Assembly: GCA_951406725.2 (NCBI GenBank)
Contig: OX597832.1
Coordinates: forward strand, 4,774,001-4,838,000
Length of the DNA: 64,000 nucleotides
Direction of reading: 5' to 3'
DNA from: Octopus vulgaris
Taxonomy: Eukaryota
This document shows positions 11,870-55,305 of the stretch, piece by piece. Numbering within the stretch: position 1 is the stretch's first letter; each line of letters opens with the position of its first letter. The translations under genes were made by a program, and so were the position numbers. The notes under the pieces are model-generated. The model saw only the letters and a program-made list of their open reading frames with translations. It was not told where the DNA came from and made no database searches.

Positions 11870-13280
11870 ACCATCCGTACAAATATATACACAGACACAT
11901 GCCTTCATATATACCTAGGGACCCACGGTTGGCAATATACTCTTCCAGGAGCCATTACTGCTTGATGACCTTCCTTGTGAACCTAGAAGTACAAGACTAG
12001 TATACACTTAGCAAAGACTTGAATGAAAAGCACTGTACATGCCATGAAAAGGCTATGCATGGGTATATTTCTTGTGAATTGGAATAGCATGATAATATGG
12101 ATTTCAAATTTTGGCACAAGTCCAGCAAGCTCGGGGAAGAAAGTAAGTCAATTACATCAACTCTAGTGCTCAACTAGTACTTATTTCATGGACCTTGAAA
12201 GGATGAAAGGTAAAATTCAACCTCAGCAGAATTTGAACTCAGAATGTAAAGAAGGACAAAATGCTGCTAAGTATTTTACCTGGCATGCTTGTGATTCTGT
12301 CAGTATAATAATATTGATTTCAAATTTTAGCACAATTTTGGGGAAGGGGTGTAAGTCAATTACATTGACCCCAGTATTCAACTGGTACTTATTTTTTGAC
12401 CCTGAAAAGGATGAAAGGCAAAGTCAAACTTGGCAAAATTTGAATTCAGAATGTGAATATGGATGAAATACTAAGCATTTTGCCTAGCATGCTAATGATT
12501 CTACCAGTATAATAATGTTGACATGAGGTGTACCCTCTCTTGGACTAATAATAATCATATCACTTCTTGAAGATTATGCTTTTGTAATCCAAAAAAACAG
12601 CAGATTACCACAAAATATCTAATGAATAAAAGAAATAGTGAAGCTCTTAAACTTCCAAGAAGCAACCATAAATGTTGATCATATCACTGTTCTATGGAAG
12701 ACATAAATGTGATCAGCAGCTGCCCAGAAATGTAATTAAATTACAACCTCCCAATGCAGCATAATGCTGTTGCTAAAACAATATACAATTCCAACCCTAG
12801 AGAAAACTTCTTTAGGATAAATATAGACAACATCTCTGTTATTGAATGCATACATAGCAACACAAGGAATATTGACAGAACATTTTTCATGAGAACTTCT
12901 ACCAAGTGCAAATATAACAAGCCTGATATAAGACAGAACAGAGTAGGACAAGCCTGATTTAGGACAGAAAAGAAAAGTCATGTATGGCCATACAAGTGAA
13001 CTGCCCTACAAACTCTTCTAAAATCAGCGAGAAGGTGAATATTTATGGACAACTGCTTCAAAATCAGCAGCTCCTCTATCCTGATTATAAACTCACCATA
13101 ATTATACGAATAATTATTGGTGTAATTGGTTAAGTGAGATTCTAGGAAATCAAAGATTATCAGGAAAAGAAAGTAACCAGCTAACACATGATCAACAAAT
13201 AAAACCTCTAAATAGAAAAGAGAAAATACGCAAAGTTTTTCTAAAGTATAGTTGTTTAACATTACTGTCATCCAAATACC
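11870..13280 (+). mobile_element. Decayed R4/Dong-like RLE LINE C-terminus, interrupted by a SINE A pair
   Basis: KAMHGY, LSWTNNNHITS, YAFVIQ..QITTKYL, KC..EDINVISSCP, QHNAVAKTIY, KYNKPDI, QVNCP..EKVNIYGQL..LLYPDYK (zinc knuckle plus PD-(D/E)xK endonuclease layout). Confidence 0.8.
12098..12508 (-). mobile_element. Head-to-tail pair of SINE family A
   Basis: Two units, 12098-12303 and 12315-12508. Confidence 0.9.
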
Positions 13281-13759
13281 AGTGATGCTGCTTTGTTTCT
13301 TTATTAGAGATAGCTCCTTCCTTTTACGAAGAATTCTGATGAATATAAAAAAGAAGAAAGAAATGCTTGCATAAATGCATACATTTAAGAAACAGACAGA
13401 CAGAAATTTCCACACACAAATTTAGAGAAATTAATCTGACCGTGTCTCATTATAAATTTCAATTTGCATAATACTGGGCTTAACAAAGAGATTCCCTTTC
13501 CTTAGAAAATGAAAGTTACTTGATTCAAATATACAAATGTGTAATATTGTATGGCAACAAAGAATTAATAGAAGCAAAAAGCCAATTTCCAGTCATGAAG
13601 ATTATATACTGAATCATAAGATGTTGAAGATAATTTAATATTATGCACTCAGCATCAGAGTATCAGACAGCTACCTCACTGTACATTTTGAGCTCAAATC
13701 TTGCTAAAGGCAGCATATTTTTTATTCTCACAAGCTTTATAAAATAAGTAATAGTAAAC

Positions 13760-16196: not shown

Positions 16197-17376
16197 TTAA
16201 CCTTAGAGCATTCGGATTACTCTGCCAAATGTAATGGTTATTTATTCACATCATTTTGAATTAGTCCTGCATTATCTTGTAGCTTTAAGATTTTGATGAT
16301 GTGATTGTTATTTTTAGGATGAAATTTTAGGGCAGGTGTGAAAGGCTGGATCTGGCTATTATGAACATAAAACAGATAGAATATTTTGGCCTAGCACTCT
16401 ACACCATATGAGATGTCATCGGGTGTACCACAGGGATCTGTCCTTGGTCCCCTCTTGTTTGTGGCATACATTAACGACATAGATGCCAATTTAAAGAATG
16501 CCACAGTATTGAAATATGCAGACGACATCAAGCTGTACCTTGAAATCAAGAGGACAGATCCTGATGTCTACAACTCTTTCCTGCAATCAGACCTAGACAC
16601 AATGCAGCAATGGATCACAGACTGGCAACTGAAACTGGCTGTGGACAAGTGTACCACCATGCATTTTGGGAGAAAAAACCCTGCGTTCACTTACTCCCTC
16701 CACAACACTGATATCAAGAAATCCTCTTGCGAGCGTGACCTAGGCATCACTGTCAGCAGTGATTTGCGTTGGTCAAAGCATATCTCTAAGATTGTCAGGA
16801 AGGCCGAGGGTGTCTTGGCATCACTCAGCAGGTCTTTTGTTAGCCGCTCTCCAGCCATCTATTTAAAACTGTATACAGCTATGGTACGACCACACTTGGA
16901 ATTTGCATCATCAGTTTGGAACCCCTATCTTGCACAGAACATTGACCTCCTGGAATCTGTCCAGAGACGTGCAACCAAACGCATACCCTCCATCAGACAC
17001 CTACCATATTCTGAGTGCCTTGTTTCCCTGGGCATGGATTCACTGAAGCTCCGGCGTTTGGCGACGGACTTGGTAAACACCCACAAAGTTATCAACCACC
17101 TCACCAACAACAACACTGAACACCTTTTTGATCTCCATGTGTCTAACACACGTGGACATGCCTACAAAGTCAGAAAACAATACAGCTCCCATGACTTTCG
17201 GAAACATTTTTTCACGCTCAGAGTTGCTGAAGCATGGAATAAACTGCCTGCGTCAGTTGTTGACTGCCATGACACTGCATCTTTTAAGGCCCTCATGCTT
17301 TCCGAAATCCGCCGAAACTACACCTGATTATATATACACTTTAGATGAGTTGTAGTGCACCTGAGCACTGTACACA

Positions 17377-39148: not shown

Positions 39149-39199
<51 letters not shown>

Positions 39200-39282
39200 G
39201 GTCCCGGGTTGATTCGGGGTTAACCACAGTAAGTAAGGTACTCAATACATAGCAGAGTAAAATTAATTTATTATATAGAAGG

Positions 39283-39333
39283 AGCTTCTACAGGACTAGT
39301 ACTGTTTCATTCAAGAGAAATCTTCAGGAAGCT
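39283..39333 (-). ncRNA. Type I hammerhead ribozyme (inverted copy)
   Basis: Exact reverse complement of 41576-41626. Confidence 0.85.
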
Positions 39334-40072
39334 ATTTAACAAGAATTGTATTAGCATTTATACATTTAGGCAGGTTTAAAGGAGTGGTGGTGGGGGACTT
39401 TTTTGGGGGTAGGCATAGCGCAAAATATCATACTTGGGGGAGTGGTCAAGGAGTCAGTGGTAAGTTAGATGAAAGAATAGATAAATAAAAAAATAAAAAT
39501 ATAAAATAAAAAAATAAAATAAATTAAAAAAATAAAAAAATATAAAACAAAAAAATAAAATAAAAAAATAAAATAAAAAAATAAAAAATATATATAAATA
39601 ATATATATAAAAATATATATAAAAAAAAAATATATATATAAAAAAAGGGGGGATATAGTTATAGGTAAATAAGGAGATTCTCACTTATACCTATACACAT
39701 ATGTATACGTATCTACACACACATATATACACATATATATATACATATATATATATACATATATACACATATACATATATACACATATACATACATATCT
39801 ACATACACACATACATACACCCGCCCACATATACAAATTTATACACATGCACATGCATATACCTGTCTACACATACACACACGTATATATGCATACACTC
39901 ACTCCCATGCATGCACGCATACACACATGAATATATATACCCACAACCACACATACATATATACACAGAAAAATATATATTCATACGCACATACACTCAT
40001 GCACACACAACACACCTAGTTCCCTATATACACATATTTACACCTATATATACATACACCCACATACACACA

Positions 40073-40110
<38 letters not shown>

Positions 40111-40207
40111 CACGCATACATATATATACATGCGTGCACATACATACATATACACATATACATACACATACACATGTGTACCTATACATACCTACACATA
40201 CACACAC

Positions 40208-40254
<47 letters not shown>

Positions 40255-40643
40255 CCAATACAGGCCCATTCCCTAATTTTAATTTTATTATCTTCATTTA
40301 TTACTTTTGTTATCTTTGATCGCTAGAGCTAAGGATCCTGGCTATGGCAGCATGTCCATTTGTCTGTCTACTAGAAGGCAAGTACTCATTCCCGCACGCA
40401 CACTCATTAGCACGTACATTCACCCATTCATACACTCATACACATACACGTACGCACGCGTTATATTCATACATACAAACATCTACATACGTTCACGTAT
40501 ATACACATACGTACTCGTACCTACAGATTCGTGTCTACACTTTAGGAGGCTAGTATATACATATACACCAATAAATATACATATATATATATATACACAT
40601 ATACATACACACACACACATATACTCCTACATACAGATACATA

Positions 40644-40704
<61 letters not shown>

Positions 40705-40903
40705 ACATACACACATATATATACACACACATACATACACATATATATACATACACAAACATATATACACACATATATATATATATATACACACATACAC
40801 ACACATACATACATATACACACAAACACATACATACGTATACATACATACATACATCCATACATCCATACTTACATGCATTTATACGCATACACACACCC
40901 CCA

Positions 40904-40942
<39 letters not shown>

Positions 40943-40996
40943 TCACACATACATATACAAATATACGCACACACATACATACATACACGTATACAT

Positions 40997-41420
40997 ATAC
41001 ACGCACATACACATATACATGCGTACCCATACACGTGCACACACGCACGTGCATCCATATATATACACACACACACATATATACACGTGTGCAAGCATAC
41101 ATACATACTCATACACGCACACATACTTACATATACATATATGCACACACTTACACACATATATACATACACATATACATGCATACATACATATATGCAT
41201 ACATACACATACACGCACATACACATATACATGCGTACCCATACACGTGCACACACGCACGCGCATCCATATATATACACACACACACATATATACACGT
41301 GTGCAAGCATACATACATACTCATACACGCACACATACTTACATATACATATATGCACACACTTACACACATATATACATACACATATACATGCATACAT
41401 ACATATATGCATACATACAC
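40997..41420 (+). repeat. 212-bp tandem duplication inside the cryptic microsatellite
   Basis: ACGCACATACACATATACATGCGTACCC at 41001 and 41213; the units are near-identical. Confidence 0.9.
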
Positions 41421-41575
41421 ACACGCGCACTCTCTTTCATCTAACTTACCACTGACTCCTTGACCACTCCCCCAAGTATGATATTTTGCGCTATGCCTAC
41501 CCCCAAAAAAGTCCCCCACCACCACTCCTTTAAACCTGCCTAAATGTATAAATGCTAATACAATTCTTGTTAAAT

Positions 41576-41626
41576 AGCTTCCTGAAGATTTCTCTTGAAT
41601 GAAACAGTACTAGTCCTGTAGAAGCT
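41576..41626 (+). ncRNA. Type I hammerhead ribozyme, predicted cleavage after GUA (A41620)
   Basis: AGCUUC CUGAAGA u UUC-UCUU-GAA u GAA ACAG-UACUAGUC-CUGU A GAAGCU: 6-bp stem I, full core, short stem II, 4-bp stem III with ACUAGU palindrome in the loop. Confidence 0.85.
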
Positions 41627-41637
41627 CCTTCTATATA

Positions 41638-41677
<40 letters not shown>

Positions 41678-53444: not shown

Positions 53445-53838
53445 CTCTTTTACTTGTTTCAGTCATTTGACTGTGGCCATGCTGGAGCATCGCCTTTAGT
53501 CGAGCAAATCAACCCCGGAACTTATTCTTTGTAAGCCCAGTACTTATTCTATCGGTCTCTTTTGCCGAACCGCTAAGTGACAGAGATGTAAACACACAAG
53601 CATCGGTTGTCAGGCAATACTAGGGGGACAAACACACAAACACACACACACATACATATATATATACATATATACGACAGGCTTCTTTCAGTTTCCGTCT
53701 ACCAAATCCACTCACAAGGCATTGGTCGGCCCGGGGCTATAGCAGAAGACACTTGCCCATGATGCCACGCAATGGGACTGAACCCAGAACCATGTGGTTG
53801 GTTAGCAAGCTACTGACCACATAGCCACTCCTGTGCCT
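53445..53838 (-). mobile_element. SINE family B, full length, young
   Basis: CpG-retaining reverse complement of 20387-20836. Confidence 0.92.
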
Positions 53839-53876
53839 ATATATATATATATATATACATATATACATGCATATAT

Positions 53877-55305
53877 ATAAATGTATAAGATGTACCCAGT
53901 GTAAGCTATGGACACATAAGAGGTGCAGCAATATCAAAGGAAGGCTAACTGGGAAGATAGTTTTTGTATGTGGCAGATGCTCTGGAGTAATAAACACTGA
54001 AAATGTGCAGAGAACAACTTCTGCCACAATCCAGGAAGAAAAACTACAAGTATTTGATAGCTTCCGTTACCTAGGTGACCAAGCAAGTAGCGGAGGAGGC
54101 TGTGCTGAAAGTGTAACTGCTAGAATAAGAATAGCCTGGACAAAGTTCAGAGAGCTCTTACCTCTGCTGGTGACAAAGGGTCCCTCGCTCAGAGTAAGAG
54201 GTAGACTGTATGACGCATGTGTACAAACACCCATGCTACATGGCAATGAAACATGGGTGGTGACTGATGAGCACATGCGTAAGCTCACAAGGAATAATGC
54301 TAGTATGATCCAATGGATGTGTAATGTCAGTGTGCATACTCAACATACCTTGAGAGAAAAGTTGGACCTAAGAAGCATCAGATGTGGCATGCAAGAGAGA
54401 CGACTGTGCTGTTATAGTCATGTGGTGAGAATGGATGAGGATAGCTGTGTGAAAAAGTGCCACACCCTAGCAGTTGAGGGAACCTGTCGAAGAGGTAGAC
54501 CCAGGAAAACCTGGGAGGAGGTGGTGAAGCACAACCTTCGAACATTAGTCCTCACTGAAGCAATGACTAGTGACCGAGACCTTTGGAAATATGCTCTGCT
54601 GGAGAACACCCAGCAAGCCAAATGAGACCATAAACCATGACCTATGCCAGGGGTCTAACCAGCCATCTTATGCATACATTTCCTTCATTGGACACTAAAC
54701 TCTGCTTCGAAGACCTGTTGAGGCAAGTGAAATTGAAATCGAAATCAAATTCACTGGCTATCATCCATACCGGTGGAGCACTAAGAGCATCATCGGAGCA
54801 TGATCATTGCTAGAGCAGCTGACTGGCTTCCATGCTGGTGGCATGTAAAAAGCACCATTCGAGTGTGATCATTACCAGCATCGTCTTACTGTCACGTGTC
54901 GGTGGCACATGAAAAAACATTCAAGCGAGGTAATTGCCAGTGCCGCTGGACTGGCTCCTATGCAGGTGGCATGTAAATAACACCATTTGATCGTAGCCGT
55001 TGCCAGTACCGCCATACTGGCTGATGCTAGGGTCGCCTGACTGGCGTCTGTGTCGGTGACACGTAAAAAGCACCAACTGATCATGGCTGTTTGCCAGCCT
55101 CCTCTGGCCCCCGTGCCAGTGGCACATTAAGAGCACTCACGGAGTGGTTGGCATTAGGAAGGGCATCCAGCTGTAGAAACTCTGCCAGATCAAATTGGAG
55201 CCTGGTGCAGCCATCTGGTTCGCCAGTCCCCAATCATCCAAACCGCCAGTCATCCAAACCATGCTAGCATGGAAAGTGGATATTAAATGATGATGATGAA
55301 GATGA
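53877..55305 (+). mobile_element. 5'-truncated RTE-clade LINE: open C-terminal frame to 54625, then 3' UTR with a tandem array and (GAT)n tail
   Basis: CTQCKLWTHKRC..CGRC, FRYLGD, ARIRIAWTKFREL, RLYDACV..MLHGNETW, RRGRPRKTW. Confidence 0.95.

Follow-up and report, generated by a model that had tools for sequence, protein, structure and literature searches.

A standard insertion of a Penelope-like element (PLE) includes an inverted 5′-truncated copy, which gives flanking inverted repeats, along with a 30–40-bp tail at one end and a (TA)n target (PMC8557442). The complete, endonuclease-bearing (EN+) elements encode a telomerase-like reverse transcriptase together with a GIY-YIG domain. Hydra-clade PLEs such as Penelope-13_HM, Hydra-1_Ajap, and Hydra-1_Obim target (TA)n and place a type I hammerhead close to the 3′ end (at a distance of 36 nt in Hydra-1_Obim); their proteins are characterized by RWK, DKT, and CxCX5C motifs and an endonuclease that lacks CCHH. 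Penelope-13_HM carries such an inverted 5′ copy, and its hammerheads on the two strands are identical (PMC8557442). Hammerhead pairs on opposite strands, 100–700 bp apart, are described in PMC4209133. Penelope insertions of Adineta vaga have inverted 212-bp pLTRs, palindromes at the inverted junction, an optional one-sided tail, and captured non-coding spacers of 0.9–1.5 kb (Arkhipova et al. 2013, PMC3846280).

The insertion reaction has been followed in vitro for PAc (Poseidon of Anolis), a PLE with AT-rich targets (Frangieh et al. 2024, PMC11167929). The PLE protein cuts and extends both target strands, cleavage by the hammerhead is not needed, and reverse transcription (RT) starts at two adjacent internal sites downstream of the hammerhead, which define the tail. 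From these steps, exactly one tailed and one tail-less outward-facing end would be expected. The PAc hammerhead is inactive without protein, and what PLE hammerheads do has yet to be settled (PMC8557442, PMC11167929). Non-LTR retrozymes also have type I hammerheads with a real stem III; they are non-coding and high-copy, and consist of units in head-to-tail tandem, every one with its own hammerhead (Cervera and de la Pena 2020, PMC7229834; bioRxiv 10.64898/2026.07.22.740005).

PLEs make up 6.83% of the Octopus vulgaris genome, where 190 families are counted, 31 of them recently active (PMC13282606), and hammerheads in octopus PLEs are already known. Here, we analyzed a 64-kb stretch of O. vulgaris DNA (the window) with an element that ends in two inverted arms, each with a hammerhead motif. 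We consider it likely that the two arms are the 5′-truncated end modules of one recent head-to-head insertion, made by a Penelope-like family of octopus that is present in high copy and has a hammerhead of Hydra type. A search by titles and abstract openings found no published work that addresses this family or the masking of PLE hammerheads by antisense sequence; the family may already be annotated in the O. vulgaris repeat library.

Layout of the element and its inverted arms

See Table 1 for the coordinates of all features. The two arms are 211 nt long each and complementary at every position (211/211, 100%). They are separated by 1956 nt, and sequence comparison found no third copy of the arm in the 64-kb window. 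The left copy extends 69 nt past the inverted repeat. Tracts of (TA)n adjoin both outer ends, 43 nt on the left and 35 nt on the right (41642–41676; Table 1 gives the part after the arm), and the outer flanks of the element read as a single split (TA)n. These measurements bear out the original prediction, which had described identical inverted arms, a left arm about 70 bp longer than the right, and (TA)n at both ends. The flanks and middle of the element show no mirroring, and the two inner junctions of the arms differ from each other. Furthermore, the left arm is adjoined by a T-rich tract of about 200 nt whose start is common to the family, a feature that the prediction had missed. No ORF was found in the element copy, including the 340 nt upstream of the left hammerhead.

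Table 1. Features of the inverted element in window coordinates
Feature	Position	Strand	Remarks
(TA)n tract, left half of likely target site	39154–39196		43 nt; from sequence
Tail, extension of left copy past the inverted repeat	39197–39265	-	69 nt; ends 92 nt past hammerhead cut site
Left arm, pLTR-like end module	39266–39476	-	C-rich 143-nt leader, hammerhead, and 17 nt after stem I; high-copy family
Type I hammerhead motif, left	39283–39333	-	Predicted cut between 39289 and 39288
T-rich tract (A-rich on +) upstream of left arm	39477–39659	-	Likely normal upstream sequence of the family; aligned stretch is 39477–39500
Imperfect 36-nt palindrome at strand-polarity switch	39660–39695		Likely head-to-head junction, center about 39678; 3 nt of indels
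CA/TA-rich cryptic microsatellite middle	39696–41432		C>G on +, no CpG depletion, no ORF
Tandem duplication, 212-bp period	40997–41430		40997–41218 vs 41209–41430, 3 mismatches in 222; ends 2 nt before right arm
Right arm, tail-less, 5′-truncated	41433–41643	+	Ends 23 nt past cut site; family-wide end
Type I hammerhead motif, right	41576–41626	+	Predicted cut between 41620 and 41621
Competing hairpin over cut site and 3′ strand of stem I	41619–41633	+	Predicted; probability 0.98 in whole arm, 0.52 in 41560–41643; mirrored in left arm
(TA)n tract, right half of likely target site	41644–41676		From sequence

Zero differences over 211 bp place an upper 95% bound of about 1.4% on the divergence between the arms. 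Using the calibration of PMC13282606, in which a distance of 0.09 corresponds to 25 Myr, the element would be under about 2 Myr old, provided that no gene conversion has taken place.

This layout has the anatomy described for PLEs in PMC8557442 and PMC3846280. The end repeat has a hammerhead near its 3′ end, with the two element ends 23 and 92 nt past the cut, and an inverted 5′-truncated copy gives the flanking inverted repeats. A tail of 69 nt is present at one end only, and both end types recur among other copies of the family. The target is (TA)n, again also in other copies, and any target-site duplication would be hidden in it. The tail is longer than the 30–40 bp of PMC8557442 and the 31 bp of A. 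vaga, where target-site duplications are visible. The two adjacent starts of PAc, the AT-rich target, and the cleavage and extension of both strands all have a counterpart in this arrangement. A recent Penelope-like insertion with an inverted pLTR, as originally proposed, is supported by the family-wide ends and by this match to known PLE anatomy. The further description of the element as non-autonomous holds for this ORF-less copy only and goes no wider, as the parent element was not found. PLE membership is likely on anatomical grounds, with no RT or endonuclease (EN) ORF linked to the end module.

The combination of a (TA)n target and a canonical hammerhead near the 3′ end is that of the Hydra clade, to which it is not exclusive, and we take this assignment as a lead only. 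Unlike the Hydra-clade PLEs, the present copy has no ORF, and its hammerhead loop III is 8 nt long and near-palindromic, compared with 1–3 nt in all 25 Hydra rows of PMC8557442. The stems differ from those of Hydra-1_Obim, and a search of the supplement for eight 12–18-nt motifs taken from the arm and tail found none of them. Judged by these stems and motifs, the present family is therefore a different one from the octopus PLEs already known to have hammerheads.

We rejected two other identifications. The motifs here lie on opposite strands, unlike the head-to-tail tandem units of non-LTR retrozymes, and no such tandem arrangement was found at this locus. Separately, a suspected PLE remnant at 12700–13700 was set aside, as its motifs were in the wrong order and it had no Pfam match.

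The repeat family in sequencing runs

We used sequencing runs to look at the arm beyond this locus. At least 75% of 24 sampled words were contained in 20 of the 24 listed runs, which span 8 studies (6 without the two possible sources) and 3 organism labels. Four runs were aligned to the 314 bases of 39187–39500, namely X2 and X3, either of which may be the source, X4, and X5, which we guess to be RNA. The alignments comprised 2408, 2613, 1456, and 19 contigs of X2, X3, X4, and X5, respectively. Thousands of distinct contigs on 314 bases indicate many diverged copies, and the arm forms the end of a repeat family that is very abundant; summed depth in these runs is not a copy number. A search of viral contigs gave no match. 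A metagenome scan gave 9 loci, and its exact matches of 19–23 nt did not continue as a hammerhead and were judged to be chance.

Both ends of the element recur in the family. Among the loose ends listed, 12, 12, and 14 contigs of X2, X3, and X4 pass into (TA)n at 39266, where the short end of the element lies, and 3 contigs of X2 do so at the tail end (39189). All four runs cover the tail, whose depth is of the same order as that of the arm, and two X3 contigs bridge tail and arm with at least 31 letters on each side. Contigs also continue upstream of the arm and are A-rich on the + strand like the left copy; in X2 and X4, this A-rich character is seen in the loose ends at 39485. Of the 140 loose ends, 24 were listed, and the right inner junction (41432/41433) is not one of those 24.

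A non-autonomous DNA transposon (MITE or foldback) that inserted at TA, with 211-bp terminal inverted repeats and a chance hammerhead, would also have perfect inverted repeats, TA flanks, and no ORF, and the recurrent end at 39266 fits a terminal repeat as well. However, the family sequence extends 69 nt beyond the left repeat, in a stretch that contigs connect to the arm and cover to a comparable order of depth, so the repeats are not terminal. Other copies exit the arm internally, at 39333 and 39408, and the inner junctions differ from each other, as 5′ truncation would give. We consider a DNA transposon extremely unlikely.

The arms also share letters that are rare in the family. At 39300, 39335, and 39383 the window has the minority letter by depth in X2, X3, and X4, and both arms share it; at 39300, the other letter makes up 86%, 92%, and 88% of the summed depth in the three large runs. 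These shared minority letters favor one template for both arms, or later conversion, and disfavor a collapsed consensus. This bears on whether one arm could be an assembly artefact from a collapsed repeat or a fold-back read. Perfect identity in a repeat-rich region is what such an artefact would produce, PMC8557442 warns that structures of this kind trouble assemblies, and no read or contig among those aligned spans the whole element. Against it, the flanks and middle are not mirrored, both outer end types are present in other copies, and a collapsed consensus would tend to the majority letters rather than those that the arms have. We give hardly any credence to an artefact and retain a genuine head-to-head insertion as our reading.

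Several contigs leave the arm at other positions. At 39333, the 5′ edge of stem I, 7 X2 contigs exit into mixed letters (agreement 0.64), and one X5 contig folds back about a 4-nt palindrome. This hints that some family copies begin at the hammerhead edge; neither arm of the present element does. At 39408, 10 X2 and 4 X4 contigs diverge upstream into related sequence, which is likely a second subfamily that shares the hammerhead end. At 39193, a single 499-nt X5 contig matches the tail and then continues for 406 further non-repetitive letters that are not in the window. These letters may belong to the parent element on the far side of the RT start, and if so, four apparent (TA)n letters would be common to element and target. 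One X5 contig exits the arm at 39398 into CA/TA sequence.

X5 has a 198-nt exact match to 39302–39499 and a 61-nt exact match over the core. These matches show neither transcription nor cleavage. No RNA run was listed with the sampled words. Two X5 contigs exit at 39302, and a splice junction in stem III was considered there and dropped, as the donor context is weak and the loose letters occur nowhere in the window. We take these loose letters to resemble a library adapter end.

The probable head-to-head junction and the microsatellite-rich middle

The palindrome listed in Table 1 was the best fold-back among 650 non-simple centers in the element, and its score was reached by 1 of 6000 background centers. 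Cumulative G-C peaks at 39676, with G exceeding C on the + strand before this point and C exceeding G after it. This palindrome, with its center near 39678, is probably where the two copies meet head to head. The left copy would then comprise about 480 nt (tail, arm, and T-rich tract) and the right copy 211 nt, with probably 1.7 kb of CA-rich sequence between them. The interior had been proposed as a single 1956-nt unit of CpG-retaining cryptic microsatellite with a 212-bp tandem duplication. The unit probably does not stand as such, as the left copy seems to continue to the palindrome, whereas the sequence character, the CpG retention, and the duplication (3/222 mismatches) were all confirmed.

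With the duplicate left out, the interior has 28 CpG dinucleotides against 24.2 expected, whereas 22 other purine-pyrimidine tracts of the window have 33 against 67.2 expected. Since these other tracts are depleted and the middle is not, the middle probably came from elsewhere; it could be either the family's own 3′ region or captured DNA. Spacers captured at inverted junctions are known from A. vaga, as described above. The middle contains internal (TA)n runs. With 3 nt of indels in the palindrome, 3 mismatches in the duplication, and none between the arms, the middle seems in part to predate the arms. The period of the duplication, 212 nt, is nearly the arm length of 211 nt, which may be chance. 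The only sizeable non-repetitive island of the middle is at 40250–40420, with no second copy in the window.

The middle (39696–41432) could instead be a resident host microsatellite, into which two short PLE end modules were inserted 1.7 kb apart at TA-rich spots, either independently or as a coupled pair. The abundance of the family and the long CA/TA tracts that are common in the window favor this, and the internal (TA)n runs, the greater number of mismatches in the duplication than in the arms, and the X5 contig that passes from the arm at 39398 into CA/TA point the same way. On the other hand, no difference separates the arms, which have minority letters of the family in common; the outer flanks look like the two halves of a single (TA)n; and the middle has kept its CpG in a window with an overall CpG observed/expected ratio (o/e) of 0.29, where other such tracts are depleted. 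A resident middle is decidedly improbable by our estimate, and we return to a single insertion.

Such an insertion could have proceeded along the lines of the PAc reaction. A PLE protein with RT and GIY-YIG domains, supplied from elsewhere, would cut both strands of a (TA)n tract. From each 3′-OH, cDNA synthesis would then begin on the element RNA, at one or the other of two internal starts that lie 23 and 92 nt past the cut site, as suggested by PMC11167929 and by the recurrence of both ends in the family. Use of the two start sites would give the tail-less right end and the tailed left end. The cDNAs would grow inward and be joined head to head, with the left copy reaching the palindrome near 39678. 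The right copy of 211 nt would be joined via the 1.7 kb of microsatellite-rich sequence, taken up by template-jump capture or as part of the template RNA.

The hammerhead motif, its predicted masking, and the host context

The hammerhead cores are at 41582–41604 (+) and 39327–39305 (-), both facing outward. CUGANGA, GAAA, and UH occur in order and are closed by stem I. Stem I comprises 6 bp, stem II begins with a U-U pair followed by 3 bp, and stem III has 4 bp with a loop of 8 nt; all three are Watson-Crick stems, with stem II weak (probability about 0.1). The cut triplet GUA ends at 41620 and 39289. Stem III and its loop in the right motif are near-palindromic, with 14/16 positions self-complementary. 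The full type I descriptor finds 2 sites in 64 kb, exactly these two, and 0 in 60 windows shuffled in two-letter blocks.

The usual G10.1-C11.1 pair of type I hammerheads is absent, with U-U in its place. U-U at the base of stem II is a described variant in Hydra PLEs (PMC8557442) and in axolotl, including HHR_Amex2 (PMC7229834). By our own count in File S2 of PMC8557442, 14 of 25 Hydra-clade families have U-U there, and 4 of the 25 have a stem III identical to that of the present motif. A scan of the 64 kb found no Rfam hammerhead match at the gathering score. At E≤10, the whole element gave 120 sub-threshold matches, nearly all to microsatellite-like miRNA models and 0 to a hammerhead, and the hammerhead alone gave 2 weak unrelated matches and no hammerhead model. 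The motif had been called a textbook type I ribozyme, which fits its core, its 6-bp stem I, and its 4-bp stem III but not the missing G10.1-C11.1 pair or the lack of Rfam recognition. Six substitutions are listed among copies, and only one of them affects the core; it is at N7 (39323), a free position, which weakly favors our reading. An ATG lies inside stem II, and its frame is closed after four codons, in contrast to PAc, where the ORF starts in stem II.

We then considered how the motif would fold, using equilibrium predictions that leave out tertiary contacts and protein. The 51-nt motif alone is predicted to fold into the active pattern at -7.3 kcal/mol. A strand-swapped dimer through the near-palindromic stem III is predicted at -27.0 kcal/mol, compared with -14.6 kcal/mol for two monomers, and would fit the dimer mode of hammerheads reviewed in PMC6765202. 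With more flanking sequence, the competing hairpin of Table 1 comes into play. The predicted probability of stem I is 0.99 in 41560–41626, 0.45 in 41560–41643, 0.39 in 41433–41626, and 0.00 in the whole arm. The ribozyme is thus predicted to be hidden by its own 3′ hairpin even without antisense; transcribed alone, it would be hidden once about 17 more bases are made.

The inverted layout would add a second mask. Whichever the direction of transcription, the antisense arm comes first. All 211/211 pairs form in both predicted whole-element folds, and at five growing lengths all arm bases made so far were paired. In read-through RNA, the antisense arm would zip all 211 nt, and neither ribozyme would fold. 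The geometry had been correctly foreseen in the original prediction, which expected self-cleavage to compete with the duplex. The competition is not a balanced one, as the arm duplex, at -398.6 kcal/mol against about -8 for the ribozyme, is predicted to win outright. Because the 3′ hairpin already hides the ribozyme, the antisense lock is predicted to be partly redundant. With the antisense arm first, all 211 nt zipped, and the hairpin in addition, this copy is likely inert as a ribozyme and at most a double-stranded RNA substrate.

It had also been suggested that masking spares a host pre-mRNA from cleavage. We found no support for this in the window, where a Pfam scan of 400 of 400 non-simple ORFs of at least 45 aa detected no host gene or exon; short exons could be missed. 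The scans used E≤0.01 and E≤0.001 and returned one match above the cut-off (RVT_1, a retroelement RT) and three below it. The RVT_1 match is a 310-aa open frame at 16395–17327 (+) with a partial domain (16395–17324, E 1.3e-17), an unbroken fragment of a non-LTR retroelement. A second, retroelement-like fragment of 266 aa lies at 53825–54625 (+) and had 32 matches; the two that are named to an animal species come from Octopus vulgaris (81% identity, 41% of the query covered) and O. bimaculoides (78% identity, 32% covered). The CpG o/e over 1–60000 is low, at 0.10–0.38 in 25 of 32 bins of the window, and rises to 0.75–0.83 in the last 4 kb. Low CpG o/e fits a methylated gene body in invertebrates, and the low-CpG part of the window may be a methylated gene body or a large intron.

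These observations bear on whether the inverted layout is itself under selection, as an antisense lock that keeps an intronic hammerhead from cutting host pre-mRNA. The predicted full pairing with the antisense arm first in both directions is what such a lock would need, and the low CpG o/e would suit a methylated gene body around it. However, no host exon was detected by the Pfam scan, and stem I is predicted to be unformed even without antisense. Inverted ends are a routine product of PLE insertion (PMC8557442, PMC3846280). PLE hammerheads cleave weakly or need protein (PMC4209133, PMC11167929), and axolotl motifs with U-U were 22% cleaved in an hour as monomers (PMC7229834). We regard a selected lock as very unlikely. 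Since masking follows automatically from the known geometry of PLE insertions, it is likely a by-product of that geometry and not a selected function.

We can picture a broader scenario, though we doubt it. The family would be a young, very high-copy octopus PLE family with a dimer-capable hammerhead that is doubly locked, by its 3′ hairpin and by an antisense arm that the element's own two-strand insertion generates. Inverted copies would be tolerated in introns while solo sense copies are purged, and the perfect 200-bp duplexes would feed the A-to-I editing that is very high in octopus. An unusually strong hyper-editing signal has been described in octopus, and a lizard Penelope is heavily edited (PMC5625713). 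If transcribed, the inverted copies would yield perfect duplexes.

As a single locus, the element is ordinary, yet it is a clean natural record of a PLE insertion. One event appears to have used two start sites 69 nt apart, one for each end, as expected from the in vitro work on PAc. Furthermore, the family offers a testable case for the role of PLE hammerheads: its stem III is complete and the loop near-palindromic, a hairpin is predicted to cover the cut site, and some copies apparently start at the edge of stem I.
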